A DNA stretch of 64,000 nt from Amphiscolops sp. MND2022. Lineage: Eukaryota. The DNA lies in contig OZ076409.1 in assembly GCA_964187785.1 (NCBI GenBank), forward strand, positions 61,692,001 to 61,756,000. The letters run 5' to 3'. The notes beneath the pieces were generated by a model, which was not told the DNA's origin, made no database searches, and saw only the letters and a program-made list of their open reading frames with translations. The translations under genes were made by a program, and so were the position numbers. This document shows, one piece after another, positions 29,801 through 54,900 of the stretch (the stretch's first letter is position 1; each line of letters starts with the position of its first letter).

Positions 29801-32800
29801 AGGGCTCAGAGACAGTATGAGGGGGGACCAGCGGAGTACATATCTGTGACAAACTTGACTTGACCCTCACAGTCACTGGAATCTCAATAAACGTCAAAGG
29901 AGTCGAATAGGTAAAGGTACTCACTTCAGCCTCTTCCTTCAGTTTGGCCGCTTCCTCCGCCTCACGCTTCAATCTTTCCTCCTAGAAACAAATTTCAGTC
30001 TTAATTATATCGACAAACTTCATTTGGACGTCAAAAAATTAAGCAAGCCATGAACGGTTTAAGACGGCGCCACGGTCCATTCGAGGTTCAAATGCGTTTT
30101 TGATTCCTCGCAAATTATAATATCTAACGTAGAAAAATTTAGCGAAGAAAGAAAAAATTCGACGAATGAATTAACAGGACGAGAACGTCTAAAGTCGGCT
30201 AAAAAAGCTCAAGTCGCTTAAATGTTACAAGGCTGTTTTCGAGAGACTTTCGGATAATCCGACAGTTTCGGATAACCGAAAAACATTCTCAAGAGGGGAC
30301 CGTTTGGGTGAAAAAAAAACGTTTAGGATTTGTTGACATGAATTTATTAAAGAGCCAAAATGGGTACGAATTGGCATTATAAAAAGTTTTCAAAAAGACC
30401 GAAAAACACTCAAATGGGGGCTCAAAACACTCATATGATTTTGCTGATCAAGTAAAAAGATGGAAAACTCAAAGAGGGACTTTTCGGGCTCTCTGGGTAC
30501 ACTTTATATCTTAGGCTTGAAGATTGTACAAAGAATAACAAGACGAAAACGTCTAGAGTAGGCGCTCAAAAAGCGCAAAGTTTCTAAATTATTCCCAGGA
30601 TTTTTATTAAAAACTCACAAATAAGTGCCGAAATCAAAGGTGCCTTGGTTTCAACTAAGCCGAATAAAAAGGGGACCATTCGATGTGAAGATTGTAATTC
30701 TGGAGCAAAAAACTGAAAAATCAGAAACGGGGGATTGCGTTTTAGTTGAAACGGTAAACGCTCCAACATTTCATTCCATATTCTGGTCGGTCTATGTGGT
30801 TAAATTTAGTCGACGTTTTCGATAGAACAAGTGATACATGGAAGACTCGAAAACCACTTTTCCCCCAACCGGAGACAACAAAACCTCTCAAAAAACTAAA
30901 AATTGAAAAAAAAATCCGAAAATTTTTTCCGAAAACATTTTATGAAGTCTCGGGTAAGTGCCAAAACCCCTAAGGAGTCCCCTATGCTCGCAAAACGTTT
31001 CGTTTCTAGTAAACATTGAGGGGTTTCGATAAAAGAAATTGGAAGAAAGGTCACATGGAAAAACCCGCTTAAAAAAACAAAATTCGGTTCTAGCGAGCTG
31101 AGAAAACTTCAAGACAGAAAATGGAAAAACCTCAATGTCAAAAATTGTAAAGAGGGGGGATTTGGGCTTTCTGAAAATCCTTTTGATGCGAAATATCAAA
31201 AAAATTGAAGGAGACCCTATGGAGACAAAAATTTTTCTGAAATGAAAAATGAGAAGTTGGAACAGTCTGATAGTGTAGGAAAATGTACAAGGGGGACCCT
31301 TTGGATTTTTTGAACATCCATTCGGTTGCAAAAAATCAAAAAAAAATTGGAGGGGGGACCCTTTGGGAAAATTGTTTCCGAAAAAAGTCTCACAATGCCG
31401 AAAAAAATTGAAAAGGGGGACCCTTTAGTCTCTCCTGGTATTGTATGTTACCATGCGTTAGGCTAAAAAATGCGAAAAGGAAGTCTCACAAAGCCAAAAT
31501 AACATGCACAAAAAATTTTGGTCAAGTGCGAGACTCGAACCTACGCCCTTCTGCTTCGCCTGATTAACCTCAGTGCCAAGTGGCAGTAGAAGTTACAAGT
31601 TTAGTGTGGCAGTTGCAGTAGGTAGAAGCAACCGCTTGTAAAGCTTATAAAATCTGTCACTTCGTCGGTCTTGAAAAAATTTTAACAAGACGGGAACGGC
31701 CCAAGTCGGCGCCATATCTAAGGCTCAAAAATAGCAAAAGGACTTCAAAGTGTCAAGTATTCTCTTCTACAGTACCCGCATGAGGAAAAAATTGAAAAAA
31801 TCGATTTTTTTCATTTTTTTTGGTCCCCGGGAAGTCGCATAGTGCCGAAAAATGTAAAAGGGGACCTCAAAAAAGCCTAATTAACCTCTATCTCAAGTGC
31901 CAGTAGAAGTAGTGTGGCATTTCGTGTTAATTCAAGCCAGCTTATAAAGCTTATAAAATCTGTCACTTCGTTGGTCTTAAAAAAAAAAGAAAAGACTACT
32001 ATAGTCTGCGTTTTTCTACGAAAAGCGCCGACTAAAAAAACCAGTGCAATAGTCGTCCTTTTCTACGAAAGCACCGACTAAAAAGTCAACTACTGTAGTG
32101 GCTTTCTTAAGACCAGCGAACTGACAGATTTCTATATGCATTTTTAGTCGGCACTTTTCTAGTGAAAAGAGCCCGACTATTACAGTGCTAGTTTTTTTTC
32201 GTCAGACTACAATCTCACTCTGATTGGGCCACTTTTCTTACAATCGAAACTACTAAAACTACTACCATAAGGCCAAGTCCGGTCAGCGGAAATTAGTGCA
32301 AAAGGGTCCCCCTTTCATTTTTTACTTTTTTAACGTAACCTACAAAACCGGACGAGACTAAAGGGCCCCCCTTTCGATTTTTTTCGGCATTGTGCGACTT
32401 TTTTCGAAATTTTTTTAAGGTCACAAAAGAGTCCCCCTTTCGAGTTTTTTGATATTTTGCAACAGAATATATGTTAATAAAGCCCAAAGGGTCCCGCTTT
32501 TACAATTTTCGGCACTATGCGACATTTTCTGGAAGAAAAAATTCAAAAATTTTATAAAAAAGTCTTTTGCGCTTTTTGAGCCTTAGATATAGCGCCGACT
32601 TTAGACGTTCCCGTCTTGTTTTTAGTCGGCGCCTTTTCCTTTAAGGAAAAAAGCCCGACTATTACAGTGGCTAGTTTTTTTTTTCGTCAGACCACAGAGC
32701 TCATCGCGTATGTACCACTTTTTACAGAAACTGATAAGACTACTCAGGCCAAGTCAGGCCAATGGAAACTTAGTGCAAAGGATCCCCCTTTCACTTTTTA

Positions 32801-35800
32801 CCTTTTTTACGTAACCTACAAAACCGGAAGAGACCAAAGGGTCCACCCTTTCAATTTTTTTCGGCACAGTGCGAAATTTTTTTCGAAAATTTTTTAAGGT
32901 CTCAAAAGAGTCCCCACTTCGAGTTTTTTGAAATTTTGCAACAGAATGTATGTTAATGAATCCCAAAGGGTCCCCCCTTTTCATTTTTCGGCACTATGCG
33001 ACATTTTCGAAGTTTTTTTCAAAAAAAAATTTTCAAAAAAAAATTCAAATTTTGTTTCCAGTCGGGAAACAGTGATTTTCCAGTCATATCGAGCATGAAA
33101 GGCACACTTTGGGTGTCTCGAAAGTGTTTTCAAAGCTTTTCATGAATACGTCTTGAGCATATTCAGAAAACTTTGCGCTTCTTGAGCCTTAGATATAGCG
33201 CCGACTTTAGACGTTCCCGTCTTGTTTCTTTTTTTTTCGTCAGACCACAGACCTCATCGTGTATGTACCACTTTTTACAGACTTCATTCGTTCACGTGTA
33301 CTCGTCAGTACAGTCTTTACTCGGTTTACGGTGAACCCCGCGGTCACGGGTTCGAGTCCTTGCCTTAGCCAGAAACTTTTTCGAGCAATTTTTTCGGCAC
33401 TGTGCGACTTTTTTTCCGATTTTTTCGCCTTCAAAAGGTCCCACCTTCAAGTTTTTTTTGATATTTTGCAGCAAACTAAAGTGCCAAAAAGCCCAAAGGG
33501 TCTCCCTTTTTATGTATTTCGGCAATATGAGACTGTTCAAAAATCTCATTTTTCGTTTTTTTTTTGAAAATTAAAAAAAATTCGAAACTTTTTTTCTCCA
33601 AAAGGTCTCCCTTCAATTTATTTGATATTTTGCAACAAACTGGATTTTCAAAAAACCCGAAGGGTCTCGCGTTTACAGGTTTAAAAACTGCGCTTTTTGA
33701 GCCTCAGATATATCGCCGACTTTAGACGTTTCCGTCTTGTTCTAAGTCAAGTTAATAACTGGCTCCCGCCACTTGGTCTAACGATTGCCGCGGGTCAGAG
33801 TTAGTAGCTGGGAATCAGTTTGCATGGGTTCGAACCCTGCGCTGGACCACAATCTTGTAATGCTTGCAAAAGTAAAGGGGAGACCAGTAAGTACCCTCTG
33901 TGGTCCTGTAAATAATGCCTTTACAATTCGAAGAAAAGCCGAAATGTAAAAAGTTTGTATTGACTTTTGATATCTCACGACTGATCAAAAATAAAATTGA
34001 AACACGCTTGAATCCCCCACACCAATTGTTACACGTATTTTGCCATTGAAATCTCATTGCTTCCATTCAATAAAATAGCATATTAGTACAGATGAGTGAC
34101 CAGACCTTACGCCCAACGACACTATGCCCAAAGCGGACATTACACCCAATTTTTATGGGGACGGTGAATAACGTCCAAGGAAGGCAATCGTGATCTGCCA
34201 CGGCCACAAACTTCTAGTGCCCTAAACGCAGGAGCGAAGCGAAGCCATGCGCCATTGCCGATTTATCGGCTGGTTTTGACGAAGGCTCGACTGGAGGGGC
34301 GCGAAGCGTCCCGGGAGAAGGAAGCCCGAATCATACAACAAATTTTTCAAATTATTGGGCGTAATGTCCTTGGGCATTCAACAAATTCAACAATAGCAAG
34401 CGAGTCTTGATCGGAAAGATGTCACGACTAGCATATAACGTTCTATTGCCTCATGCCATTTTGCGGAGATTATTCTAAACTTCATCTTGGCTAGAAATGT
34501 TGCTGCCAAATCAAACTGTCAAATAATTACAAGACCAACGAAACGTGATGGGTGTGAAATTTAGTGAACCATGAAAATAGGAATCTTTAACGCTGCTGGG
34601 CCTTCAAAAAACTTTCTAATAGTTTGCTTTTTCGTCCAAGGAGAGTCTCCGAGAAATAGAAATACATAAGGCAAGAAGACATGGTTCGCGTATTTGAATC
34701 TAAAACGTATAACTTCCATCGAAATTCGTATTAGCATCAAAAAATGATAGAGGGTACCGAACAATTCGAAAAAAAAATCATTTTCGTTTTTATGTTCATG
34801 CTCATTAAACTAATTTTTTGCCGCAAATATTTACACACTGCGTGTCCCGGTAAACGAATGGGCTGACAAAAATTGGTGAGAAACTTTATGTTTCTGTGCT
34901 AATTTCTGTTTGTCCTCAATATACTCTGCTAGGTACAGTTGAATTCGCCTAATTCGTATCGCCAGGGACCAAATAAAACAGTAGGAATGAGAAATACGAA
35001 TTAACCGGATGATATTACAATTTGATTGTCGTGGGAGTTTCCGATACATAGCAATTAAACGAACATCCGAATTATCCCGTAGGGAACAATGAAAAGGCAT
35101 CTTTCTTGAAACTTAGGTTGCCTTTTCTATTCTGCCTCTTACGTTCTTTGCAGCCTCACTCTTGAAAGAGTCTCTTCTATTCCTTGAACCTTTTCTACGA
35201 ATGCAAATCAAGCAATGAAAACTTAGCATTTCAAACTTTACCTCTTCTTGTTTGGCCTTTCTGACAGCCTCTTCCTCTTCTCGTTTCTTCTTCTCTTCCA
35301 ATTCTTTCCTCTTCCTCTCGACCTCGGGGTCCTTGGCGTGTTCCAGGGCCCTATAGATCTCATAGCAGAAGTCCCGCTGTAGCATCTCGTACATACTCTC
35401 CGCAAACACTTCAAGCTGAGAAACAAACCAAACTCGCAATTCATTTACTCGTACATTGGCTGATAAAATGGAGTTCAAAAGTATATTCAACTCGAAGCTA
35501 TAAATTTATTTTAAAAACTATATGCACATCTTCCTATGTAAATATTATCCGAAAAACAGTTATGCTTATTGTAGTTCACGTCATGAAAAAATGCAATAAA
35601 ATGTCAAAATCTAAGTTGAAACCTATGCCAAAATATCTTCCATCAAAAATTCAAAATATTGGTTGCATTCTTGGCAGTTGCTTCTTAAATGTATAGTCCC
35701 ATAGATTTCAACCAGACACCATTAAACATATGCGCTTGGATTATATGTTATTTCAACACTAACAGTGAATGCATCTTCCTTGGATTCTGCATAAACTTTG

Positions 35801-38800
35801 TCCAAGAGGGAGCTGAACGAGACATCTCTGTACTTGACTGAATCAGAGGAGCTGCTTGGGTCATTGTCCTGAGGGTGCACTATGATGTGAGGGGTGTCGG
35901 GCAACTCGTACATCTTTCTGATCTCAGCCTGCTTCTCTTTTCGCTCCTTCTCCTTCCGCTCCTGCTCTTCTTTTTCCTTGCGTTCCTAAATACAAGCACA
36001 GCTCAATTAACACTTGAAAAAAGGAAAACATGAAACTATGGAAGCTTGATATAGTGGAAGCAGTGATACTACTGTATTTAACGCAAAGGCGAAATTCAAT
36101 ATCGGGCGATAATAAACTGCGTCTAGATTTCATCGATTAACAAAGTCTAATTTATTCCAAACATCTAAATCTTTTCTTAGACAACAAAAAATATTATTAA
36201 TGATGCTTTTCCAAAACTATGGAGTTTAGGTTTTTAAATTTGTGGTGGTTATTGTAACCAGAGCCGCATGTGTGGTAAGGAGTCGGCTTAGGTCTTTTTT
36301 CTTCTGACGCGCTCGAATCCCAGTCATATGATTTTGATGCCCTTGCACATGTAGGACCATAATATGGTTTAGAATGACTGTACAAAATTTCCTTCGAATC
36401 GTAAGGGCAGTGTTTGCGAAAATTGAAAAAAGTTGAAAAATGGCTGTTTTTGGCCATTTTTAGTCGGCGCTTCATGAAGTGAAAAGCGACTATTATAGTG
36501 ACTTTTTTTCTTTTTTTCAATCCACACGAACTGACCAAAATAGTTCTTGAAAGTTCTACGAAATATTATGGTGCCAAATTGAAACATTTGGCTTAGCGAA
36601 CTGAACCAAAAAGGTTTTTTGTTTTTCCGCGTAACATACAATACCAGGAGAGACTAAAGGGTCCCCCATTTCAAATTTTTTCCGCATTGTGAGACTTTTT
36701 TTCGAAAAAAAAATTATCATGAAAGGGTCCCCCCAGTAGTTAAGATTTCAGCCGGCCTTTCAACGGGGGGGGTCCTCGGTTTTCACGGGGTGGGTCCTTG
36801 CTCTGAAATTTTAGGACCTATCCCTAAAAGGAAGGGGTCCTTCCAAATTGGTGTTCGGAATTGATTCGGCTTTTGACTACGAAAGTAAATTATTGGTCGG
36901 ATTCTTTTTGTATTCGTTTTTGGAATCGGATTTTTGCGAAAGTACATGTAAAAGCGTAGACATTCTTGTTTGTTCTTTGAATGTCTGAAATTTGGAAAGT
37001 ACTAACCTTGAAATTTTGTTGTAATTGAATTGTAAAGCTGGATTGACTAATACTGCTAAAACTTTCTTGTAATTAAAGGCAGTGGTATTTCCAACTTTCT
37101 TATCTGTATGTACGCTTTATATGCGTTTCTCCAAATGTAGTGGTGGCGGTGTTCTTATTTCTACCTGGAAATTATCACTTGAAATAGTTGTTTTCCACGA
37201 AAATATTTCGAAAATATGTGAAATTATAAAGTTCATGTAGGAAAAGCATAGACATTCTTACTATTTGCTTGAATGTCTTAAATGTTTGCAAGAACTAACC
37301 TTGACATTTTGGTGTAAGTCGAATCTGAGCGGTGGTGGAATAACTAACACTTTCAAGTTCGAACAAGCTGTACAAAACTTTCCAAACATGGTATCAACTA
37401 TTGAAAGGTATTATTCCTTATTTGCAACGGTGGTTAGCTTGGAGGAATGTTAATATTACAATCAATGTCAGCAAGTGTTGTTTGGTAGTTGGAAAGAGCT
37501 CTACTTGACTGAAATACTGGCTGTGAAATTTTCTTCAATTCCTTCCAAATTTAGCAAAGGTCTAATTTTGATGTTTCACCAAAACGGTGTTACTTCTTTT
37601 CTTCGCCTTAATTGCAACTGGTATTTCTCATTGTGAAACACTTGTTAAAAGGAAGCATTTGCGAACATTCACCAGTTTATGGGTAAATACGATTTTACTT
37701 TACGATATTGGTATTACTAATTGTCATTTTTCAAGCAAAGAATTCTATAAAAATGGTACTAAATTTTGTCATCAAAGTCCGTAGCTGAAATCAATGAATC
37801 ATTCTTCAAATATCTGTTGAAAACTGGCAATTTCTAAGGTAAGTGTGATTTCTTTTGAAGTTATATCAACAATGAAAAAAAGGTTAGATCATTTTTCAAA
37901 CCAAAACCAAATAAATACAAAACCTGCATTATCAACAAAATTGTATCAAGTCATTAGTTTTTGTTGAACAACTGCATAGTATACTTGATCAACCCATATT
38001 CGCTCTGCATTTTTGTTGTTAGATCAAAGCATAGGTCCCGTATTGCGTTTTGATATCGATCAACGGCATCTCCGTCAACATAATACTGTAACGGAGAGAC
38101 TATGCTCGGAGAATTGAACCGTGGTATGACAAAAATCCATTTGTCCTTGATAGTTGGTAGACGGAGTGAAAATTCAGTTTGTTCCGACAAAACTACCTTC
38201 CAAAGACAGACATTGCATTTAACCATTTCTTGAAAATATTTTATGTAGAAGTCCGGGGACCCACATAAGAAAATTATATAAAACCAGAAACAAATGGTAA
38301 CCAGTTTAATGTTTTTATGAATGGAACTAGGAAAATTGCTAATGTTTCATTCCGGTTGTATTTTTTACTGAAACCGTTGTAAATAATCATAGTGGGAAAA
38401 TTTCAAGCTTGTTAACCTCAATCCTTGCTCAACGAGTGTTGTTTCGATCTAATTTTTTCCTGCTCCAAGAGTTGTTGGTTTTACATTTATAGCTTCCATT
38501 GCTCCTTGCACAATAGCCAATTGATCATTTTTCATATGAGAACCAAACATTTTGGTGTTATAGTCATTGAATTTGCTCTTTTGTGATTTTTTTTGGTTCT
38601 AATTCCAAAGGTTAAGTGATTTGAATGAAGAAATGAAAGAACCGAGTGAATTGTTTTTTAGTAAAGTTTCTTTGAATCTCTTCTTTGTCAAAATTCTCCT
38701 TGAATGAATATCAATGTTTCGCTAACGCCCTGGGGAAAAGCTTACCTTCAAACTCTGGATATACTGAATTACTTGTATATTGTCTTTTATGGTAGTCCAG

Positions 38801-41800
38801 CCGCCAAGTTTTCCTGGGAAAATTTACACACCTTTATTCAGCTAGCCTCTTTCAATTGTAGTTACCTGATTAATCATTTCAACCCTCGATTATTTAGGGG
38901 CTGAGTCATTTTGAGTTTTGTTCAATCAATCCTCCTTTAAAGAAGGGAAATGCTATTTTCCTTTGAAAAAAATGAATATTTTAGGAGACCTCCGTTTTCA
39001 AAATTCATTTTTCCAAAATCGTCTTGCGCATCTACACACCAATTTTGAGCTCGATCGGACCAGCCGTTTTCGAGAAAAAATGACCTTTTTTGCTAAAAAT
39101 CGACCAATTTGAAAAATGTGAATCGGATCAATTATCTTGGCATTGGAGGTTGCCAGAGTCCAACGGACGGTACCAATCGATTCGGCGCACTCTTTACTGC
39201 AAAAAGGTGTTATTTTTAAGGTTTCATCTTTTTTATTTCTTGAAAAATGATCCATTTTTTCATGAAAAAGTGTCAAAAAGTTGTTTTAAAAATTGTCCAT
39301 TTTCTCGTAAACTACGCGACTTTTGTTATTCACTCTTATAGTCAAGACTTGTGAAATTTTCCAAAGTTGACTCTTTGAGAATGTTAATTTCACATCAAAA
39401 CGTTTCTACTTTACATTGTTTTTCCTCTCTTTGAGGGGAGGGCCTTGGTAATTTTCTTTGAAAAAATGAATATTTTATGGACCCTCCCTTTTCAAAATTC
39501 ATTTTTCCAAAATCGTCTCGCGCATCTACACACCAATTTTGAGCTCGATCGGACCAGCCGTTTTCGAGAAAAATGACCTTTTTTGCTAAAAATCGACCAT
39601 TTTGAAAAATGTAAATCGGATCAATTATCTTGACATTGGAGGTTGCCAGAGTCCAACGGACGGTACCAATCGATTCGGCGCACTCTTTACTGCAAAAAGG
39701 TGTTATTTTTAAGATTCCATCTTTTTTATTTCTTGAAAAATGATCCATTTTTTCATGAAAAAGTGACAAAAAGTTGTTTTAAAAATTGTCCATTTTCTCG
39801 TAAACTACGCGACTTTTGTTATTCACTCCTATAGTCAAGACTTGTGTAATTTTCCAAAGTTGACTCTTTGAGAATGTTAATTTCACACCAAAACGTTTCT
39901 ACTTTACATTGTTTTTCCTCTCTTTGAGGGGAGGGCCTTGGCAATTTTCTTTGAAAAAATGAATATTTTATGGACCCTCCCTTTTCAAAATTCATTTTTC
40001 CAAAATCGTCTCGCGCATCTACACACCAATTTTGAGCTCGATCGGACCAGCCGTTTTCGAGAAAAATGACCTTTTTTGCTAAAAATCGACCATTTTGAAA
40101 AATGTTAATCGGGTCAATTATCTCGACATTGGAGGTTGCCAGAGTCCAACGGACGGTACCAATCGATTCGGCGCACTCTTTACTGCAAAAAGGTGTTATT
40201 TTTAAGATTCCATCTTTTTTATTTCTTGAAAAATGATCCATTTTTTCATGAAAAAGTGACAAAAAGTTGTTTTAAAAATTGTTCATTTTCTCGTAAACTA
40301 CGCGACTTTTGTTATTCACTCCTATAGTCAAGACTTGTGTAATTTTCCAAAGTTGACTCTTTGAGAATGTTAATTTCACACCAAAACGTTTGTACTTTAC
40401 ATTGTTTTTCCTCTCTTTGAGGGGAGAGCCTTGGCAATTTTCTTTGAAAAAATGAATATTTTATGGACCCTCCCTTTTCAAAATTCATTTTTCCAAAATC
40501 GTCTCGCGCATCTACACACCAATTTTGAGCTCGATCGGACCAGCCGTTTTCGAGAAAAATGACCTTTTTTGCTAAAAATCGACCATTTTGAAAAATGTTA
40601 ATCGGGTCAATTATCTCGACATTGGAGGTTGCCAGAGTCCAACGGACGGTACCAATCGATTCGGCGCGCTCTTCACTGTAAAAAGGTGTTATTTTTAAGG
40701 TTCCATCTTTTTTATTTCTTGAAAAATGATCCATTTTTTCATGAAAAAGTAACAAAAAGTTGTTTTAAAAATTGTCCATTTTCTCGTAAACTACGCAACT
40801 TTTGTTATTCACTCCTATAGTCAAGACTTGTGAAATTTTCCAAAGTTGACTCTTTGAGAATGTTAATTTCACACCAAAACGTTTCTACTTTACATTGTTT
40901 TTCCTCTCTTTGAGGGGAGGGCCTTGGCAAATTTCTTTGAAAAAATGAATATTTTATGGACCCTCCCTTTTCAAAATTCATTTTTCCAAAATCGTCTCGC
41001 GCATCTACACAGCAATTTTGAGCTCGATCGGACCAGCCGTTTTCGAGAAAAATGACCTTTTTTGCTAAAAATCGACCATTTTGAAAAATGTAAATCGGAT
41101 CAATTATCTTGACATTGGAGGTTGCCAGAGTCCAACGGACGGTACCAATCGATTCGGCGCACTCTTTACTGCAAAAAGGTGTTATTTTTAAGGTTTCATC
41201 TTTTTTATTTCTTGAAAAATGATCCATTTTTTCATGAAAAAGTGTCAAAAAGTTGTTTTAAAAATTGTCCATTTTCTCGTAAACTACGCGACTTTTGTTA
41301 TTCACTCCTATAGTCAAGACTTGTGTAATTTTCCAAAGTTGACTCTTTGAGAATGTTAATTTCACACCAAAACGTTTCTACTTTACATTGTTTTTCCTCT
41401 CTTTGAGGGGAGGGCCTTGGCAATTTTCTTTGAAAAAATGAATATTTTATGGACCCCCCCCTTTTCAAAATTAATTTTTCCAAAATCGTCTCGCGCATTT
41501 ACACAGCAATTTTGAGCTCGATCGGACCAGCCGTTTTCGAGAAAAATGACCTTTTTTGCTAAAAATCGACCATTTTGAAAAATGTAAATCGGATCAATTA
41601 TCTTGACATTGGAGGTTGCCAGAGTCCAACGGACGGTACCAATCGATTCGGCGCACTCTTTACTGCAAAAAGGTGTTATTTTTAAGGTTTCATCTTTTTT
41701 ATTTCTTGAAAAATGATCCATTTTTTTCATGAAAAAGTGTCAAAAAGTTGTTTTAAAAATTGTCCATTTTCTCGTAAACTACGCGACTTTTGTTATTCAC

Positions 41801-42950
41801 TCCTATAGTCAAGACTTGTGTAATTTTCCAAAGTTGACTCTTTGAGAATGTTAATTTCACACCAAAACGTTTCTACTTTACATTGTTTTTCCTCTCTTTG
41901 AGGGGAGGGCCTTGGCAATTTTCTTTGAAAAAATGAATATTTTATGGACCCCCCCCCCTTTTCAAAATTCATTTTTCCAAAATCGTCTCGCTTTTCCAAT
42001 TTTGAGCTCGATCGGACCAGCCGTTTTCGAGAAAAATGACCTTTTTTGCTAAAAATCGACCATTTTGAAAAATGTTAATCGGGTCAATTATCTCGACATT
42101 GGAGGTTGCCAGAGTCCAACGGACGGTACCAATCGATTCGGCGCACTCTTTACTGCAAAAAGGTGTTATTTTTAAGGTTTCATCTTTTTTATTTCTTGAA
42201 AAATGATCCATTTTTTCATGAAAAAGTGGCAAAAAGTTGTTTTAAAAATTGTCCATTTTCTCGTAAACTACGCGACTTTTGTTATTCACTCCTATAGTCA
42301 AGACTTGTGAAATTTTCCAAAGTTGACTCTTTGAGAATGTTAATTTCACACCAAAACGTTTCTACTTTACATTGTTTTTCCTCTCTTTGAGGGGAGGGCC
42401 TTGGCAATTTTCTTTGAAAAAATGAATATTTTATGGACCCCCCCCCTTTTCAAAATTAATTTTTCCAAAATCGTCTCGCGCATTTACACAGCAATTTTGA
42501 GCTCGATCGGACCAGCCGTTTTTGAGAAAAATGACCTTTTTTGCTAAAAATCGACCATTTTGAAAAATGTAAATCGGGTCAATTATCTCGACATTGGAGG
42601 TTGCCAGAGTCCAACGGACGGTACCAATGGATTCGGCGCACTCTTTACTGCAAAAAGGTGTTATTTTTAAGGTTCCATCATTTTACTTTCTTGAAGTATG
42701 ATCAATTTTTTCATGAAATTGTGATAAAAAGTGGGTTTTAAAAAGTGTCCTTTTCTCATAAACTACGTGCTTTTTGATATTTACTTTTATGGTCACGACT
42801 TATAAAAGTTTTAAGAGATATCAATAGGAGCGAAAGTAGAGAGAGAGAGAGGAGCTAAGATAGATAGTGGAGCGAAGATAACGAAAGAGAAAGATAGGAG
42901 CGAAAATAGAAGAAGATAGTGAGAGGAAGAGGAGCGAAAAGAGAGAGACA

Positions 42951-42998
<48 letters not shown>

Positions 42999-45900
42999 AG
43001 GGACAAAGGAGCGTTGATAGATAGAGGAGTGAAGATAGAGAAAGAAGGAGATTTCTAAACCTGGATAAAGAGACTTTCTCAATTTGATTACGATGGTTGA
43101 AATCTTCGAAGGTTCGAAGCAACTGCAAGTTTAAAAGATAAATGTTCAGAAAGGCCTTCACTCTTATTGTTGGAAAAATAGTCATGACTCTGCTCAGACT
43201 CTTCATTATTTGTATTGGTTCTAATAAACACCAATTCAATTTTAGTCTCCAATTGAATCTAGTAGTATGAAAAAAAAGTTAACACGAACCACTTTTTGCT
43301 GTTTTATTTTACCTCGAAAATGACTGGGAAAGTCAAACCATACGGTCGGTTTGAGTTCAAATTTTTCTTCGTTGTCACTCTGCTTCATTTCATCGTCCGA
43401 AACAACAAATTTCTTTTCATCCAGAAATAAAGTTGGATTATCCAAAGTAATTGGTACAATGGTTTTCGGTGAAGAATGAGGTATCTTGTAATGCCCGAAT
43501 GCTAACGTTTCATTTCNNNNNNNNNNNNNNNNNNNNNNNNNNNNNNNNNNNNNNNNNNNNNNNNNNNNNNNNNNNNNNNNNNNNNNNNNNNNNNNNNNNN
43601 NNNNNNNNNNNNNNNNNNNNNNNNNNNNNNNNNNNNNNNNNNNNNNNNNNNNNNNNNNNNNNNNNNNNNNNNNNNNNNNNNNNNNNNNNNNNNNNNNNNN
43701 NNNNNNNNNNNNNNNNGTAATCAAATGTAAAAAACACGCACCGTGTGTCGAGTACAAAATGACTCCTCCACCGGTACTAGACTTTCTTCGTTGATAAAAC
43801 TGATGCTCCAACGAAATTGGAGCGGTCTTTTCCATTGTGCCAAGCAACAGCGGAGTTTGAAAGAAGGCACTTTTTCCAGTGACAAGGTAGCCCATAGCAC
43901 AAAACCTATTTCTCTTGCCTTATTTCCTTTTAGTGGGAACTGCCGTTATCGAGGTTTGGACCTCAGCAAATCCTAAATCTTTGATGGTATTTGTGCAAAA
44001 GCTACTTTTTTGGCGAATTGATCTTTCAACAAAAAAATGCAATTTTTCTACGTGTGTGCTTCATCGAAAGTTAAACGTGGAATATATTTGCTTGATTCCA
44101 AAACACAAAAAAAAATGAAAATGAAAAAGCGAGTAACCACTTTTGCAAGTGACACTCCCAAAGATTCAATGGTTCAAAATGACAAAGTCGTAGATGCGTT
44201 GATGCATCTCAAGATTACTGTTGTAGGGTTGTACAAACGGCTCTTGTGTAGGCTCCACCAAAGTCTACAAATTGGCATCATTTTGCACGATTGGATTGAT
44301 GATATGCTATGAAGTATGACGACAATGATATGAACAGAACGTAGACAACGTAGAAGATGAAAACAACAAAAATAACAGTAATTTCGATAAAGCATTTTCA
44401 AAAAACCTAACTTTTATTACGTTTTGCCTTTTCAAACCGCGACACTATTTCAAACTGTTGAGCAAACGTTTTACAGTCTTCAAATTTGCAGGATGTTTTT
44501 GATGGATGAAATTTTATTTTAAAAAGTCTGTTCAGAGTAGACATGCTGCGCGAGTAATGTTGGAGGAGAGAATATTGCTTTGAAGACTACTGCAATTTCC
44601 CTGAACAGGAGGGCAGTTGAAGACATCAACAATCACAGTGGTATCTATTCCATAACCCGTGAACGCCGTCACCGGGTTCAAACCACCATTTACCCGTGCA
44701 ACTAGTATCAAAGCAATCTTTCGCGCAACCGACTACTCCAACCAGACCTTGAACAAAACATTCGCTGCAGCCTTTTCAAAGAAAACTGACAATGACTATA
44801 TCTGCACCAGGGAGAATGTTGAAACAAATTCGAAAAAAAAAATGTTTTAACTGAATTCATTTCTGAGGAGCGTTCAAACTGTCCAGCGATTTTCCTGGTT
44901 TGTCAATCCCACCATCCATCGCCTGAGCTAGTAAACAACCCTTGAGCAAAAGCAGTACGAATTCATAAGGGCTTGGATTTCGTTTGATGTAAAGTGTCCT
45001 ATACATGTTTTCACTGCTGTGTAAAAGATTTAGCCCTCTGAGTGAAGTTTTGACTTGGACTGAAAACGGTTGCTATACGCACACTACTGTATAATCAACA
45101 CCAGCGTCCCAACAAAACCTTAATCCCGTGTTACATTCAGACAAGCCCCCAAACACGTTTTTCCCGCTCTCCGAATGAAAATTGGAAGAAAAAAACAAAC
45201 AATGTATTTTAGACCACACTTGCCTAACATTTTTGCAGAAAAACAATATTTCGTTTGGCTAAAACTTGTTTGCTCTTACAAAAACATGAGAAAATAAACG
45301 TATCGACACTTATCCAAAGAGAAATTGAAAAAATAAAGTAGATTCCATATTATTCACTCGTTTCTTAAAAAATATATCTTTTAGATTATTATTTTGTACT
45401 CAACTTATAATAAAGTGATACTTTTTTTTCAAAAATCAAATAATCTGACTCATGAACTCTTTGTTACCTTCATGGTATCAGTTTTACCCTATGAATAACT
45501 GACATATCTTGAATGTTTTGAATAAACATGTGAAATGAAGAACCAGTGAAAACTTTTTAAAATAATTTGATTGAAAAACAATGAAGGCTCTGATGAAAGT
45601 GAAAACTGTCTCTTAATCGGAATTGATATGATTATTGTTTTGAAGATTTTGATGAAGAGTATTTCACAACTTTCGAAAAAACTTTTTGTAGTAAGAAACT
45701 TTCTAGTTTTGAAGAATCAAAGTGTTTGTTCACACAGAATAATTCTTCCGAGAACAATTTTTAAAGGAATCTCTGAGTAGAATTCTTTTTGATGTACCTT
45801 ATTTTTTAGAAATTGAACCAAAACGTTTGCAATTTGAAAGACGAAATGACCGATAATTGAAAACAAAACAAAAGCAGGATCTCTTGAACAATATGAAGAC

Positions 45901-48900
45901 GTGAGCAATATGAAAGCGAGGAACACGTTTCGAATCTGAAGTTTTTTCATTCCTCGAGCATAATTTGAAATAATTAAATTCTGTGCTGTTTATGATTTTA
46001 TGCATGATGGCAATCAGAGATAGACAGATCAGTTCCCTCTACCGGATACCATGCACCCAAACGACCAATCAGAAACAAGACAAACCCCATTCCTTCCAGG
46101 AAAGCCTGAAAAACGTTGAAGAACCGAACTTTGGAAGAGAACGGGTTGGAATGGAACTTATTCAAAATGTAGTATATATTCTTCAAATACTGAACCAATC
46201 CAGGTTAAATTGGATATCTTTTTGTTGTGAAAAAAATTCTTTTAACCGTCTGTTAATTGGTGATTGTATATGTTTTGTATTAGCTTGCGTTTCTTTTCAT
46301 TGATTAGCAGATAAATACAAAGTCAATTCAAATCTCAGTGCCAAAAAATACCACAAAGGATACACATAAGGCTCGGAAACCACAGTTTACCCAACTGGAA
46401 TTACAAAAAATCTTTTTTTGAAAATTAATTCGATTTTTTTTTCGGGAAAGTCTCATAGTGCCGAAAAAAGGAACTTTCAGCTTAGAAACTACTTTCCTCA
46501 AGCCGAAAACAGATAGGAAAGCAGGAACATACCCTTTAATCAAATGAAAGTTTCGGAAAAAAAAACGCACAGAGTCAAAACAGCCCAAAGAATGATAAAT
46601 AAGTGGAGATAAAACAGCTGTTTGATTATATTGAAAATAATAAGGTCTCACAGTGCCAAAAAAACCAGAGGGGGATTCTTCGGCTTCAGTTGAATTTGTG
46701 TCAACTCTGAATATCTTGAGAAACAAAGGAGGGACCCTTTTGTATTATTAAAAAACCTCTCCCACAAACAGAATTTCCAGTACACGTTATATCCGGAATC
46801 CGTTATAACCGGTTGGCCGTAAATCTTGTTGTGTGCTTGACGAAGGAGACTCCTTTACATTTCAAGTGCAGGATGTACATTGCCCAAAGGGACTTTACCA
46901 AAATTAAAGAATTTTTACTAGAACTGTTTTTGGAAAACCATGACTATAGTCGCTCTTTTCTAAAGAAAAACGCTGTCAAACCAATATGTTTGTCAAGAAT
47001 ACTTCCAGATTCTTTTCAAATTGGGCGTAATCGAAGCACGTCATATTTTGAATGAAACAATTGAACCGTTTTTTCCGCAAAAATGTTTTTTTACTTTCAC
47101 GATGACCTGACTTTTTTGATTCAATAATTCGGATTTTGACCATTCAAACGGTTTTCATCTGAGCTATGCAGTCAATACTAAAGAAGCTGAGATTCGATGA
47201 ACACTTTCGTATAGGCCTTGTCTTCGATCTGTCTTTCATTATACAGTACAATACTATAGGTCTAAAGTAGCTAAGATTCAATTAACACGATCCTGTAGCT
47301 TTTATATTCGATCAATCTTTCAACATACAGTACCATAAAATAGGTCTAAAGTAAATATTAGGTGAACACGATCGTATGGGTTTCATATTTGATCATCCTT
47401 TCCATATACAGTACCATACTATTGCTCTAAAGTAGCTACGATTCAATGAACACAGCCGTAGAGGACTTATGTGTGATCTATCTTTCATTATACATCACCA
47501 AATTATAGGAGTAGGGTAGCTAAATTTCAATGAACACGGCCGTATAAGACTTATATTCGGTATTTCTTTCAAAATACAGTACAATACTATAGGTCTAAAG
47601 TAGCTAAGATTCAATTAACACGATCGTATAGCTTTTATATTCGGTCAATCTTTTAACATACAGTACCATAAAATAGGTCTAAAGTAGCTAAGATTCGATG
47701 AACAGGGTCGTATATGTTTTATATTCGATCTATCTTTTAAAATACAGTAGCATACTGTAAGTCTAAAAGAGCTAAGAATCAATGAACATAGACATATAGG
47801 ACTTCTATTGGATCTATCATTCTATATAGCGTACAATACTTTACGTCTAAGGTAGGTGAGATTCAATAAAAACGGTCGTTTGGGACTTATATTTGATATA
47901 TCTTTCGATATACAGTCCCATTCTGTAGGTCTAAAGTAGCAAAGATTCAATTAACACAATCTTATAGGTTTTATACTCGATCAATCTTTCAATATACAGT
48001 ACCATACTAAAGGTCTAAAGTAGCTAAGGTTTTATGAACAAAGTTGTATAGGAGTTATCTTTGATCTATCTTTCAATTTACAGTACCATACTATGGATTA
48101 AAGTAGCTAAGATTCATTGAACACAGCTGTAAAGAAATTGTATTCGATCTATCTTTCAATATACAGTACAAAACAATAGGTCTAAAGTAGCTAAGATTCA
48201 ATTAACAGCATCGTATAGGTTTTATATTCGATCGATCTTTCAATATACAATACCATAAGATAGCTCTAAAGTAGCTACAATTTATTGAACAAAGTTGTAT
48301 AGGACTCATATTTGATCTATATAGATTTTACAAGATTCGACCATAATATAGCTCTAATGTAGCTACAATTTAATGAACAAAGTTGTATAGGACTCATATT
48401 CGATCTATATTTCATTTTACAGTACCATACTATAGGATTAATGTAGCTAAGATTCAATTAACACGATCGTATAGCTTTTATAGGCGATCAATCTTTCAAT
48501 ATACAGTACCATATAATAGGTCTAAAGTAGATAAGATTCGATGAACAGGGTTGAATATGTTTTATATTTGATCTATTTTTCAATATACAGTACCATACTA
48601 TAAGTCTGAAGTAGCTAAGATTCAATGAACATAGACGTATAGGACTTATATTGGATCTATCATTCAATATAGAGTACAATATTTTACGTCTAAGGTAGGT
48701 AAGATTCGATGAAAACGGTCGTATAGGACTCATATTTGATCTATCTTTCAATATACAGTACCATACTAAAGGTCTAAAGTAGCTAAGATTTTATGAACAA
48801 AGTTGTATAGGACTCATATTCGATCTATCTTTCCTTTCACAGTACCATACTCTAGGATTAAAGTAGCTAAGATTCATTGAACTCAGCTGTAAAGAACTTG

Positions 48901-51900
48901 TATTCGATCTATTTTTCAATATACAGTACAAAACTATAGGTCTAAAGTAGCTAAGATTCAATTAACACCATCGTATAGGTTTTATATTCGATCGATCTTT
49001 CAATATACAGTACTATGATATAGCTCTAAAGTAGCTACGAATCAATGAACAAAGTTGTATAGGACTCATATTTGATCTATATTTCATTTTACAGTACCAT
49101 ACTATAGGATTAATGTAGCTAAGATTCAATTAACACGATCTTATAGCTTTTATAAGCGATCAATCTTTCAATATACAGTATCATAATATAGGTCTAAAGT
49201 TGCTAAGATTCGATGAACAGGGTCGTATATGTTTTATATTTGATCTATCTTTCAATATACAGTTCCATACTATAAGTCTGAAGTAGCTAAGATTATATGA
49301 ACATAGACGTATAGGACTTATATTGGATCTATCATTCTATATAAAGTACAATACTTTACGTCTAAAGTAGGTAAGATTCGATGAAAACGGTCGTATAGGA
49401 CTCATATTTGATCTATCTTTCGATATAGAGTACTGTAAGATAGGTCTGAAGTAGCTAAGATTTAATAAACATAGTTGTATAGGACTCATATTTGATCTAT
49501 CTTTCAAATTACAGAACCTTACTTTAGGACTAAAGTAGTTAAGATTCGTTGAACACAGCTGTAAAGGACTTATAATTGATCTATCTTCCAATATACCGTA
49601 CCATACTATAGGTCTAAAGTAGCGGAGATTCGATGAACAGGGTCGTATATGTTTTATATTCGATCTATCTTTCTATATACAGTACCATACTGTAAGTTTA
49701 AAGTTTCTAAAATTCATTGAACATAGGCGTATAGAAATTTTATTGGATCTATCGGTCAATATACAGTACAATACTATACGTCTAAGGTAGCTAAGATTCG
49801 ACGAACACAGCTGTTAACGACATATATTCGATCTATTTTTCATTATACAGTACAATACTATAGGTCTAAAGTAGCTAAGATTCAATTAACAAGATCGTAT
49901 AGCTTTTATATTTGAACAATCTTTCAACATACAGTACCGTACTATAGGTCTAAAGTAGGTAAGATTCGATGAACAGGGTCGTATGTGTTTTATATTCGAT
50001 CTGTCTTTCTATATACAGTACCATACTATAAGTTTAAATTAGCTAAGAATCAATGACAATAGGCGTATAGGACTTATATTAGATCTATCAGTCGAAATAC
50101 ATTACAATACTATATGTCTAAGGTAGCTAAGATTCGATGAACACAGCTGTAAAGGACTTTTATTTGATCGATCTTTCTATATACAGTACAATACTATAAG
50201 TCTAAAGTAGCTAAGATTCAATGAACATAGGCGTATACGACTTATATTGGATCTATCTTTCATTATACAGTACAATACTATATGTCTAAGTAGCTAAGAT
50301 TCGATGAACATTGTAGTGTAGGACTTATCTTCGATCTATATTTCAATATACAGTACAATACTGTAGGGCTAAAGTAGCTAAGATTCAATGAACACAGTCG
50401 CGTAGAACTTATATTCGATCTATATTTCGAAATACGGTATATTACTATAGGATCTCTGTAGAGATCCTAGTAGAAAATAGTAGCTATTTCAGGGGCTACT
50501 CTGCGCATTTGTAAAAAAATATGCCCTTATTTCGTGTCCGGCACTTCGTTATTCAACACTGTGAAAACTCTTTCAGTCTTCTATACATGAGAAAAAGTAT
50601 ACTTTTTACAGCATTTCATCATCTTTTTTCGTCAATTTCTATAGCAATTTTCACAATTTGCAGGTCACATTTCCATGTTACTCGGTGTGAAAATATGGCG
50701 TTGTGTAAAGGTGGAGATATTTTTGGCGGTTGATGGTTGGAATGATAAAGAATGTTATCCATTACGCAAATGAAGGTAACTTCAGGGAAATTTTATCCAT
50801 GGAAATCACGCATCAATAAAGGTCACTAGCATCAAAAGGAAGTAAGTAGAAGCACATTCATTTCAACGTTGGTAGATGAAAGCACCTTTTATTGATCCTG
50901 TTTCCTTTTATCACGACCGCAATTTCCATTCCTAACAAACTGCTCCTTCCATTTTTTATTACTTTCCAGCACGCAAAGGTAAGGAAATTTCCTTTCATTG
51001 CCTGAAATAGAAACAAAAAAAATTTCCGGGCTCGGATTTTTCAAGGTTGTGTATATTTGTTTCGGTTTCTAGTCGGCTCTCCGTGAGTGAGTATTTTTTG
51101 ACCTTCGGTTACGTCATTGTGTCGCCATCATGACGTCATTTGGAGTTCGCGTTATGACCATGTTTGGTTACTCACTCAACCCCCCCCCCTCTTATAATGC
51201 CGCGTACTTTTACTACTCCGAATCTTACAAATTTTTCAAATTATTGAGCGTAATGTCCTTGGGCATTCAACAAATTCAACACAGAGGCGAAGCGGTGCTT
51301 CGCAACACATGACGAAGACATTATTTTAATATGCGTATATATATATATATTATTTTAATCGCATGCGTATATATTCAACAGTTCAACTTTGTTCAATAAC
51401 GTCCCTATGGCACAGTGGTCAACACTTATGCCGTGCAATCGGGAGGCTGCAGGTTCGAATCTCTCAGGGGTTTTGGCTTTTGTCTAAAAGGCGCTCATTA
51501 TGAACTTGACTATTGCGGAAAAAAACTTTCTTAGCTGGACTGCAATGCACATTGACTTCGTCATGTGCAACAATAGTAAGCGAGTCTTGATCGGAAAGAT
51601 GTCACGACTAGCATATAACATTCTATTGCCTCATGCCAATTTGCGGAGATTATTCTAAACTTCATCTTGGCTAGAAATGTTGCTGCCAAATCAAACTGTC
51701 AAATAATTACAAGACCAACGAAACGTGATGGGTGTGAAATTTAGTAAATCCATGAAAATAGGAATCTTTAACGCTGCTGGGCCTTCAAAAAACTTTCTAA
51801 TAGTTTGCTTTTTCGTCCACGGAGAGTCTCCGAGAAATAGAACCACATAAGGCAAGAAGACATGGTTCGCGTATTTGAATCTAAAACGTATAACTTCCAT

Positions 51901-54900
51901 CGAAATTCGTATTAGCATCAAAAATGATAGAGGGTACCGAACAATTCGAAAAAAAATCATTCTCATATTTTATGTTCATGCTCATTAAACTAATTTTTTG
52001 CCGCAAATATTTACAGACTGCGTGTCCCGGTAAACGAATGGGCTGACAAAAATTGGTGAGAAACTTTATGCGTGCTAATTTCTGTTTGTCCTCAATATAC
52101 TCTGCTAGGTACAGTTGAATTCGCCTAATTCGTATCGCCAGGGACCGAATAAAACAGTAGGAATGAGAAATACGAATTAACCGGATGATATTACAATTTG
52201 ATTGTCATGGGAGTTTCCGATACATAGCAATTAAACGAACATCTGAATTATCCCGTAGGAAACAATGAAAAGGCATCTTTCTTGAAACTTAGGTTGCCTT
52301 TTCTATTCTGCCTCTTACGTTCTTTGCAGCCTCACTCTTGAAATAGTCTCTTCTATTCCTTGAACCTTTTCTACGAAAGCAAATCAAGCAATGAAAACTT
52401 AGCATTTCAAACTTTACCTCTTCTTGTTTGGCCTTTCTGACAGCCTCTTCCTCTTCTCGTTTCTTCTTCTCTTCCAATTCTTTCCTCTTCCTCTCGACCT
52501 CGGGGTCCTTGGCGTGTTCCAGGGCCCTATAGATCTCATAGCAGAAGTCCCGCTGTAGCATCTCGTACATACTCTCCGCAAACACTTCAAGCTGAGAAAC
52601 AAACCAAACTCGCAATTCATTTACTCGTACATTGGCTGATAAAATGGAGTTCAAAAGTATATTCAACTCGAAGCTATAAATTTATTTTAAAAACTATATG
52701 CACATCTTCCTATGTAAATATTATCCGAAAAGGGTTCGGCTATGAAAAACCGTTATGCTTATCTAAGCTGAAACCTATGCCAAAATCTCTTCCATCAAAA
52801 TTTAAAATATTGGTTGCATTCTTGGCAGTTGCTTCTTAAATGTATAGTCCCATAGATTTCAACCAGACACCATTAAACATATGCGCTTGGATTATATGTT
52901 ATTTCAACACTAACAGTGAATGCATCTTCCTTGGATTCTGCATAAACTTTGTCCAAGAGGGAGCTGAACGAGACATCTCTGTACTTGACTGAATCAGAGG
53001 AGCTGCTTGGGTCATTGTCCTGAGGGTGCACTATGATGTGAGGGGTGTCGGGCAACTCGTACATCTTTCTGATCTCAGCCTGCTTCTCTTTTCGCTCCTT
53101 CTCCTTCCGCTCCTGCTCTTCTTTTTCCTTGCGTTCCTAAATACAAGCACAGCTCAATTAACACTTGAAAAAAGGAAAACATGAAACTATGGAAGCTTGA
53201 TATAGTGGAAGCAGTGATACTACTGTATTTAACGCAAAGGCGAAATTCAATATCGGGCGATAATAAACTGCGTCTAGATTTCATCGATTAACAAAGTCTA
53301 ATTTATTCCAAACATCTAAATCTTTTCTTAGACAACAAAAAATATTATTAATGATGCTTTTCCAAAACTATGGAGTTTAGGTTTTTAAATTTGTGGTGGT
53401 TATTGTAACCAGAGCCGCATGTGTGGTAAGGAGTCGGCTTAGGTCTTTTTTCTTCTGACGCGCTCGAATCCCAGTCATATGATTTTGATGCCCTTGCACA
53501 TGTAGGACCATAATATGGTTTAGAATGACTGTACAAAATTTCCTTCGAATCGTATGGGCAGTGTTTGCGAAAATTGAAAAAAGTTGAAAAATGGCTGTTT
53601 TTGGCCATTTTTAGTCGGCGCTTCATGAAGTGAAAAGCGACTATTATAGTGACTTTTTTTCTTTTTTTCAATCCACACGAACTGACCAAAATAGTTCTTG
53701 AAAGTTCTACGAAATATTATGGTGCCAAATTGAAACATTTGGCTTAGCGAACTGAACCAAAAAGGTTTTTTGTTTTTCCGCGTAACATACAATACCAGGA
53801 GAGACTAAAGGGTCCCCCATTTCAAATTTTTTCCGCATTGTGAGACTTTTTTTCGAAAAAAAAATTATCATGAAATGGTCCCCCCTTCAATTTTTAGATG
53901 TTTTGCAACGATGGATGTTAAAAATCCGAAAGGATCCCCCTTTTAGCGCGCCGCGCTAGCGGGCCCCCGGCGCGCAAATTCGGCCAAACTTTCTGGGTTT
54001 TTCAGGTACTGAATACTTGTAAAGTAAGGAATACTTGACAGTTTGAAGTCCTTTTGCTATTTCTGAACCTTAGATATGGCGCCGACTTATGCCGTTTCCG
54101 GCTTGTTGGGCTAATTTTGGCTATCTATATTTCTCACATCCCAGTCATACAATTTTGATGCCCTTGCGCACACAGGGGCCCCTTTGGGTGTAGAATGACT
54201 GTGCAAAATTTTATGAAAATCGTATGGACAGATTTTGAGAAACTTGAAAATTTCCTTGAATCTATCTGAAGGCGTCAACTGAGCAGCAATATATTTTCAT
54301 CTTGAATCATTTCAGCAAAATTTTTCCATAAACAAGTATGTTTCGGGAAGGAGCACCATTTTGGAGCATGAATATAAAGCATGGCAAAATTTTTTAGGGA
54401 AAAAGCGGCTGAGGGGTTGAACTTTAGCTACCAGGAATAAGACGCGGCGGATTATTTTGAATGCAACTGTCATTCTGATAACTAACTTTCTCCAATCTTT
54501 CCGCTTCTTCTCGTGCCTTTGCAGCCTCTGCTTCTCTCTTCTCCTTCCTTTCCTTGTCCTCTCTTATCTCGCGAGCCAATCTCTCGGCCTCTTCTTTCTG
54601 TTTGTCTTCCTGTTGTTTCAAGAACTGAGTCACACCCATCTTTTCATCCCCAGTCTGGGCAGACTCAGAGGTGTCTTTGGACTCCGGCTTGTCCTCGGAA
54701 GAACCCCAGTCTTTGGAGGACTCTTCTTCGCCAGCTGCAGTAGAAACCCCGCTGTCTTTGGCGTCAGTTCCTGAGACTTCCATTAACTCATCACCGTCGG
54801 CTGAAAAACCTCATGACTTAATAAAAAACAAGACGGGAACGTCCCAAGTCGGCGCCATATCTTAGGCTCAAAAATATTCAAGGAACAACTATTGGAAATA

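Follow-up and report, generated by a model that had tools for sequence, protein, structure and literature searches.

Mavericks, or Polintons, are described as elements with (AGT)2//(ACT)2 end motifs, a protein-primed DNA polymerase B and genes for an integrase, an ATPase, a protease and a capsid, which carry mutual terminal inverted repeats (TIRs) and are bordered by a 6-bp target site duplication (TSD); the TIRs of intact vertebrate copies measure 46 to 1,447 bp (PMC8097293). At the eri-6/7 locus of C. elegans, several Polintons lie in one host gene and one strain carries an exon-bearing duplication, but the repeats described there are the TIR of a single Polinton family, and the locus was reshaped mainly by an inversion (PMC11414722). 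Transposon ends exactly at duplication breakpoints, with non-matching flanks, are known from hybrid element insertion (PMC2775673) and from the reversed-ends duplications of maize Ac/Ds (PMC3744419); in the cases described, the ends belong to one cut-and-paste family. A kilobase-scale direct repeat around an element inserted by an integrase is also a feature of aberrant retroviral integration (PMC5041404). Assembly can give a similar picture: in false heterotype duplications, near-identical copies adjoin on one scaffold, with a gap between the copies as a listed hallmark and false exon gains among the outcomes (PMC9516828).

The window (the whole 64,000-nucleotide stretch analysed) contains a host segment written twice, on either side of an insert with Maverick-type ends (Table 1). 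AGTAGT begins at 36735, directly after copy A, ACTACT finishes at 51217, directly before copy B, and copy B opens with CCGAATC, as does the sequence at 34326. These boundaries are set by the homology between the copies, without reliance on the hexamers, and the (AGT)2//(ACT)2 motifs sit exactly on them; with 13 occurrences of AGTAGT and 24 of ACTACT in the window, the chance of both falling on the boundaries is about 8e-8. The alignment of A with B (2333 matches, 25 mismatches, 10 gaps) confirms to the base the coincidence of breakpoints and insert ends reported in a first-pass annotation. The insert length of 14.5 kb given there holds for the sequence as written (14,483 bp), but this figure includes a 200-N gap, so the real length may differ. 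In contrast to eri-6/7, what is duplicated here is host DNA lying between two dissimilar ends (PMC11414722, as far as that locus is described), and the element found at the start of each copy in the maize cases described is not seen here (PMC3744419).

Table 1. Features of the duplicated locus (window coordinates)
Feature	Position	Strand	Remarks
CCAR1-like gene, span of tblastn matches	26753..63289	-	S1-like, DBC1-region, SAP-region, LAIKA and EF-hand exons (putative)
Older host element with inverted arms	34103..34368		Intact over 34325/34326, cut in copy B
Copy A, duplicated host segment	34326..36734		2409 bp
Exon e2, copy A	35242..35415	-	174 nt, phase 0-0, LAIKA second part
Exon e1, copy A	35764..35985	-	222 nt, phase 0-0, LAIKA first part
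Left half of insert, Maverick end	36735..43516		6782 bp; no host dispersed repeats detected
Left Maverick-type terminus	36735..36773	+	AGTAGT and G8 run at 36765-36772
493-bp tandem array	38955..42801		7.8 copies, units 0.4-3.4% apart
Maverick-type protein-primed DNA polymerase B, C-terminal tail (putative)	43365..43514	-	Cut by gap; match to P0072
Assembly gap	43517..43716		200 N, sole N run in window
Right half of insert	43717..51217		7501 bp; polymerase not continued, Maverick core genes not found
Decayed units of host intronic repeat family	46440..46764	-	n = 4, in right half
84-bp tandem array	47178..50451		39 copies, 75% matches, no open frame
Right Maverick-type terminus	51179..51217	-	ACTACT end and C10 run at 51180-51189
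Copy B, duplicated host segment	51218..53885		2668 bp
MITE in copy B only	51306..51567		15-nt arms (93%), CAA target duplication
Exon e2, copy B	52418..52591	-	Identical to copy A e2
Exon e1, copy B	52915..53136	-	Identical to copy A e1
Host dispersed repeat (BLAST)	53605..53945		Continues past 53885, ends at 36734 in copy A

The locus originally held a single copy of the 2.4-kb segment. Each breakpoint cuts an older repeat that continues in the other copy, as the first reading had it. At the right breakpoint, 12 of the 15 BLAST matches of copy B to other copies of the host repeat span 53885, against none of the 12 matches of copy A across 36734. The older host element (arms at 34103-34116 and 34136-34149 versus 34355-34368) spans 34326, and copy B keeps only its right arm (51244-51257; 4 matches against 0.04 expected).

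The surrounding gene is a putative member of the CCAR1/CCAR2 family. Its tblastn matches to named CCAR1 proteins are collinear, with the S1-like, DBC1, SAP, LAIKA and EF-hand regions in order. Pfam profiles place S1-like above the cut-off, LAIKA split across two exons (PF19256 in e2, E 4.5e-6, 26.8 bits versus a cut-off of 27) and EF-hand weakly, with no DBC1 match on the single exon tried. The claim that the duplication carries exons is borne out by e1 and e2, which lie in frame in each copy and together form the duplicated unit of 132 codons; the neighboring exon on one side ends at 54487, and that on the other side starts at 29981.

The insert differs from described Mavericks in lacking both a mutual TIR and a 6-bp TSD (CCCCCC versus CCGAAT), the latter in agreement with the first-pass annotation. 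The two ends are not TIRs of each other: what they have in common is the hexamer and a G-run that stops at position 38 from the terminus in both, and they are unrelated beyond position 39. Over the first 40 nt the similarity score has a p of 4e-4 versus random windows, while the core similarity beyond hexamer and G-run is not significant (p 0.06 versus shuffles, 0.12 versus random 22-mers); a weak local match lies further inward (p 0.03). BLAST finds no match between the two ends, and its best match between the two insert halves is 50 bp at 76%. The G-run architecture follows none of the 35 further AGTAGT/ACTACT sites in the window, and each terminal motif has 0 matches in the viral contigs searched; a metagenome match (L001) was rejected as a 26-bp chance match with no similarity beyond it. 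The partner end of the right half, that is, a matching TIR, is absent from the window. Two elements, not one, probably make up the insert as written.

The assignment of the AGT ends to Mavericks stands for the left half, where a putative polymerase tail supports it, whereas for the right half the terminal motif is the only pointer to such an identity. The tail of 50 amino acids matches residues 1171-1218 of the 1252-aa protein P0072 at 68% (E 3e-14), so about 3.5 kb of polymerase gene should continue beyond the gap. The polymerase assignment is transitive, via P0072, the tail itself giving no direct alignment to the polymerase of locus L008. Of 10 viral loci, 8 align with P0072 over ∼1100 aa at 31-37% and the other 2 over shorter stretches, and full-length relatives of this polymerase adjoin rve integrase, Pox_A32 ATPase and double-jelly-roll capsid genes on viral contigs of 15-21 kb. 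P0072 carries PolB-type motifs. Pfam gives it only a weak Endonuclease_7 match, searches of phages and NCBIfam return no match, PDB returns none except a zinc finger at E 0.4, peptide patterns reveal no close viral relative, and a polymerase profile search misses the left-half tail. A second, near-identical copy of the left family (P0070) is 97-100% identical over three blocks on a 486-kb contig.

Across the gap, no sequence overlap was found, and four polymerase queries detect no continuation in the right half (best E 0.32). The assembled part, set against described Mavericks (PMC8097293), contains large internal satellites and no integrase, ATPase, protease or capsid gene in 24 six-frame reads searched with Pfam; these genes may lie in the gap. 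None of 106 open reading frames from 10 Maverick-like loci matches the window at E 0.05. The halves also differ in their host-repeat content, with four decayed units in the right half versus none in the left. A coding role of the 84-bp array is ruled out by at least 39 stops in each of the three minus-strand frames.

The divergence between A and B is allele-like and uneven, with 2.0% plus the MITE insertion in one block and 0.2% in the other (non-coding mismatches, 23 in 1153 nt versus 2 in 860 nt; Fisher p 3e-4). A change-point test gives p 7.5e-4, and uniform divergence is rejected with exons excluded (KS p 0.003). The 396 coding nt show 0 differences where the non-coding mean would give 4.9, a pattern that fits two functional alleles; allowing for the block structure weakens this result, the P for e2 then being 0.03 under the neutral rate, or about 0.1 if relaxation affected a single copy.

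The locus is probably a false heterotype duplication, in which contigs of two haplotypes, each with a different intronic Maverick-type insertion, were scaffolded together; judged from the sequence, the 2.4-kb repeat most likely stems from joined parental chromosome copies and not from a true gene duplication. Haplotype 1 would carry an element L in the intron preceding e1 (at 36734/5, expected TSD CCCCCC), and haplotype 2 an element R in the intron following e2 (at 34325/6, expected TSD CCGAAT). Both long repeated elements would have interrupted their contigs, a break to be expected for the left family given its near-identical second copy. With the left contig from haplotype 1 and the right contig from haplotype 2 placed end to end across the gap, the DNA between the two sites would be written twice and both partner ends would be missing; the CCAR1-like gene would then have one LAIKA cassette per chromosome. 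One Hi-C-scaffolded assembly contains 939 gaps totaling 187.8 kb, or 200 bp each (PMC13173280), so the 200 N here are probably a placeholder.

The unpaired ends, the polymerase cut by the gap without continuation, the unlike history of the halves and the mosaic divergence count for this joining of haplotypes. Among the three explanations offered by the first-pass annotation, mis-scaffolding fits best, as the best reading rather than a proven one. It requires that one individual carried two different Mavericks in trans, 2.4 kb from each other, and the ends have more in common than the hexamer, namely the G-run and the weak inner match. A real exchange between homologues predicts mosaic allelic divergence equally well, and a long repeated element could produce a gap even in a real structure. 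The overlap here also departs from the false duplications described (PMC9516828) in that it does not abut the gap; both junctions lie inside gap-free sequence, 6.8 and 7.5 kb from it, behind unrelated transposon ends. If the structure is an artefact, it is a type of false exon duplication that is hard to purge because the haplotype overlap is hidden behind those ends. The two insertions would then be polymorphic Mavericks in neighboring introns of a conserved gene, which hints at a possible hot spot for insertion and at the left family having been active recently.

A real chimera between homologues, which would duplicate the 132 CCAR1 codons in frame, is a minority possibility when its forms are taken jointly. 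That a Maverick integrase joined two unlike ends, or those of an element with a TIR of ∼6 bp, into homologues 2.4 kb apart and so made an in-frame tandem two-exon duplication is unlikely. The corresponding account of the whole locus, a coupled integration between homologues of the hybrid-element-insertion type, is distinctly unlikely. Here, one of the ends joined to the homologue would come from a resident Maverick; the other would derive either from a different element or from one whose TIR is imperfect and spans only 6 bp. With the target 2.4 kb away on that homologue, the element would come to lie between two allelic copies. The order flank-A-[element]-B-flank is predicted, along with intact ends on both sides, flanks lacking a matching TSD and mosaic allelic divergence, and the hexamer and the G-run at equal distance accord with it. 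The process is known for cut-and-paste transposons (PMC2775673), as are related reversed-ends duplications with non-matching flanks (PMC3744419), and such an allele could be tolerated since the duplicated exons are of phase 0-0. However, the cases described in both reports involve one transposon family, whereas the ends here part after position 39, and coupled integration predicts neither a mid-insert gap nor a polymerase cut off without continuation. In the literature searched, mostly outside subscription journals, no report of coupled integration by Mavericks was found, nor of a Maverick with a kilobase target duplication or unlike ends. If real, the locus would be evidence for coupled or recombinant Maverick ends and would represent a Maverick-made in-frame domain duplication, giving CCAR1 a second LAIKA domain of 132 codons; Mavericks would duplicate host exons through a coupled-end reaction not found in that literature.

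The first reading also considered two Mavericks that sat on different alleles, 2.4 kb from each other, and recombined unequally; taken as two different elements with the crossover in the unassembled middle, this account retains a slight chance. It accounts for the unmatched ends, the missing TSD and the mosaic divergence, and at eri-6/7 more than one Polinton insertion is reported together with rearrangements of the locus, among them a 2.8-kb exon duplication in one strain (PMC11414722). Within the 14.3 kb assembled, however, the halves have no homology to serve such an exchange; the same coincidence of two insertions as in the joining of haplotypes is required, plus a rare crossover and survival of its product, and no gap is called for. 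A single aberrant integration with a 2.4-kb target duplication on one chromatid, the copies diverging later, is highly improbable: the termini do not form a TIR pair, and divergence is mosaic where initially identical copies should diverge evenly unless gene conversion is added. The breakpoints do fall exactly on both insert ends, and host sequence duplicated over hundreds or thousands of bp can border aberrant HIV proviruses, but in the cases described one end is often truncated (PMC5041404), whereas both are intact here.

Beyond the earlier reading, the analysis adds three points: the ends are unpaired, a putative polymerase gene is interrupted by the gap, and the duplicated exons appear to form an in-frame CCAR1 LAIKA cassette. 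No Rfam match occurs in 33000-55000 and no tRNA in the whole window. In the left half, the frame at 37960-38823 (stops read as X) has no homologues and no PHROGs or PDB matches, and an Atlas look-up of the open reading frame at 43245-43514 gives no lead. A single-sequence fold of P0073 is unusable at a pLDDT of 31. The open reading frame at 37957-38346 yields a weak laminin-G-like lead in the Atlas, with 94-107 of 256 features in common.

Pairwise alignment of the two copies of the 2.4-kb host segment, A and B, gives 2333 matches and 25 mismatches, and the sequence between them starts with AGTAGT at 36735 and ends with ACTACT at 51217, exactly where the first-pass annotation had placed the boundaries. 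These hexamers occur 13 and 24 times in the 64 kb, and the chance of both falling on homology-defined boundaries is ~8e-8. The insert of 14.5 kb described earlier measures 14,483 bp as assembled, but this figure includes the only gap of the window, besides which it consists of a left half of 6782 bp and a right half of 7501 bp. As already claimed, a 6-bp target site duplication (TSD) is absent at both homology-defined boundaries, and older repeats are cut at each breakpoint. At the right one, 12 of 15 matches to other host-repeat copies pass 53885 in B, compared to 0 of 12 passing 36734 in A; at the left one, an element with inverted arms straddles 34326, and its right arm alone is left in B. 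The ancestral locus had one copy of the segment. In the assembly, the pattern of duplication and insert does exist and is more sharply defined than in the first-pass annotation.

Features of the window discussed in the text, by position
Feature	Position	Strand	Detail
Tandemly repeated blocks	1-3724		Offsets ~760 and 1720 bp, 95-96% identical
CAAGAT-word arrays	14278-15209		Two, degenerate; periods 11, 20, 32, 40, 67
173-bp satellite	18821-22468		21 copies
CCAR1-like gene	~63289 to 26753	minus	Collinear CCAR1 matches; LAIKA region matched twice
Copy A	34326-36734
Old block of A	34326-35652		23 of 1153 non-coding nt differ from B
Recently shared block of A	35653-36734		2 of 860 non-coding nt differ from B
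Left sub-terminal copies	36939-37317		Two, diverged, ~290 bp apart, 80% over 90 bp
Open frame	37957-38346	minus	130 codons
Seemingly altered or broken polymerase end	43296-43364	minus
Polymerase tail	43365-43514		68% to P0072 residues 1171-1218
Gap	43517-43716		200 N
Host intron repeat	46440-46764		Four decayed units
Right sub-terminal motifs	51110-51138		TGACGTCA and related ACGTCA, 80-110 bp inside terminus
Copy B	51218-53885
Satellite-like part of host intronic repeat	36317-36461, 53468-53612		82-88% to 173-bp unit

One exon of the host gene has 60 relatives (E up to 0.001); five of their clusters were looked up, and the three that are named are all CCAR1 or CCAR1-like. Judged by these named relatives, the DNA is probably from an animal. 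The duplicated unit contains two exons (222 and 174 nt) that have GT/AG sites and are in phase 0 at each boundary, so a real duplication would insert 132 codons without shifting the frame. The elements sit in introns at both insertion sites, which lie 749 bp from the acceptor of duplicated exon e1 and 916 bp from the donor of e2.

The non-coding differences between A and B fall into two contrasting blocks (Fisher p 3e-4; scan-corrected change-point p 7.5e-4). A 291-bp insertion in copy B alone contains a 262-bp MITE and its CAA target duplication, and a complex indel lies near 35550. Both exons are identical, with 0 differences in 396 nt versus 4.9 expected at the non-coding mean, a contrast weakened by the block structure. 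Judged by this pattern, A and B look like alleles, which need not diverge evenly if they have a recombination breakpoint. The block next to the clean left element is the recently shared one, and that next to the right element is the old one, a coherent picture. This divergence fits an assembly join and a real exchange between homologues alike.

The identification of the insert as a Maverick is supported for the left half by its polymerase tail; for the right half, the terminal motif is the sole pointer to this class. The left-half frame running into the gap has three protein relatives, among them P0072 (1252 aa), which has motifs of family-B polymerases. With 8 of 10 viral loci retrieved by a motif pattern, P0072 aligns along ~1100 residues (31-37%); its alignments to the remaining two are shorter. 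Pfam searches of 38 ORFs from six of these loci detected an rve integrase in three, a Pox_A32 ATPase in three, and a double-jelly-roll capsid in two. The left half is predicted to be the end of a Maverick, the tail being assigned transitively through P0072: the tail does not align directly with the polymerase of the viral contig L008, and a polymerase profile search missed it. When the non-array insert was searched against Pfam as 24 six-frame reads, no Maverick family was detected. A second relative, P0070, represents a near-identical copy of the left-half stretch (97-100% in three blocks) on a 486-kb contig, which may be another locus, the other haplotype, or a sister assembly. Past the shared stretch, the residues of the window and P0070 are unlike the polymerase tails of P0072 and the third relative, P0071, so the polymerase end of this family looks altered or broken. 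The left half also contains a young-looking 493-bp array with units 0.4-3.4% apart; no host repeats were detected in it. For its 130-codon frame, a possible accessory gene, no homologues by sequence were found; the Atlas offers a weak lead to laminin-G/ConA-like domains. On the minus strand, each left sub-terminal copy includes the donor-like word GTTAGT. Ten Maverick-like viral contigs (L002-L011) span 9-22 kb; L003 shows the AGTAGT motif from base 3, L005 a Tet_JBP oxygenase ORF, and L002, L008, and L011 ORFs with an F5/8 type C domain.

On the minus strand, ~1170 further polymerase codons are expected past the gap. In the right half, none of four polymerase queries gets a match better than E 0.32, 0 of 106 ORFs from Maverick-like loci match the window at E 0.05, and a search against the insert halves alone returns two matches only, of 17 and 25 residues (E 0.009 and 0.003). 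The right half apparently does not continue the left-half polymerase gene and contains decayed host repeats together with an old 84-bp satellite (75% matches), so the gap either hides at least several kb or joins unrelated sequence. The right sub-terminal motifs recall the ATF/CRE sites of adenovirus ends.

AGTAGT is common to both ends, as is a G-run that stops at position 38, and the score of their first 40 nt exceeds that of random windows (p 4e-4). In the core between hexamer and G-run, left and right ends show no significant similarity (p 0.06 and 0.12); past 50 nt, they agree without gaps at 10-19 of 50 positions, and the strongest local match deeper inside is marginal (p 0.03); BLAST of one half against the other finds nothing better than 50 bp at 76%. 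Intact vertebrate Mavericks, according to PMC8097293, have terminal inverted repeats (TIRs) of 46-1,447 bp and 6-bp TSDs, in contrast to the insert, which lacks such a TSD and whose ends, on these comparisons, are not a TIR pair. The simplest reading is that the left and right elements belong to two families with a common terminal design. A single element whose inverted repeat is very short could still account for the insert; some protein-primed phages have ends of this kind.

Both strand-transfer junctions are genuine sequence, whether they lie in cis or in trans. The duplication is probably an assembly join in which ordinary Maverick insertion alleles of two haplotypes were written in tandem, which favors mis-scaffolding among the three options of the first-pass annotation; all likelihoods here are judgements, not computed. 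In this trans model, two heterozygous insertions would lie 2.4 kb apart, contigs would break within both elements, and broken contigs from different haplotypes would be joined. It predicts, all at once, the gap, ends that do not match, a polymerase that is cut off, the lack of a TSD, and divergence like that of alleles. PMC9516828 lists a gap between copies, as seen between A and B, among the marks of false heterotype duplication, and PMC13173280 describes fixed 200-bp gaps in a Hi-C-scaffolded assembly (939 gaps, 187.8 kb). According to PMC11414722, Polintons can strike one gene repeatedly, which eases the coincidence of two insertions.

That a Maverick really duplicated the LAIKA exons of CCAR1 in frame is doubtful. 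Coupled integration of unlike element ends between homologues, duplicating the segment in cis, is described for cut-and-paste transposons but demands an extra rare event, and no report for Mavericks was found in the literature searched; it is unlikely. Unequal recombination giving a chimera in cis profits from the same eased coincidence (PMC11414722) but additionally calls for a rare event, crossing-over of elements without visible homology, and is rather improbable. A single kilobase-long TSD is very improbable, since copies born at one moment should diverge evenly and A and B do not, and other explanations have the least weight.

Elsewhere in the window, the minus-strand frames of the tandemly repeated blocks resemble a decayed retroelement integrase; Pfam did not find an integrase in 390-824. 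The 173-bp satellite, whose unit matches part of a host intronic repeat, apparently grew out of that dispersed repeat.
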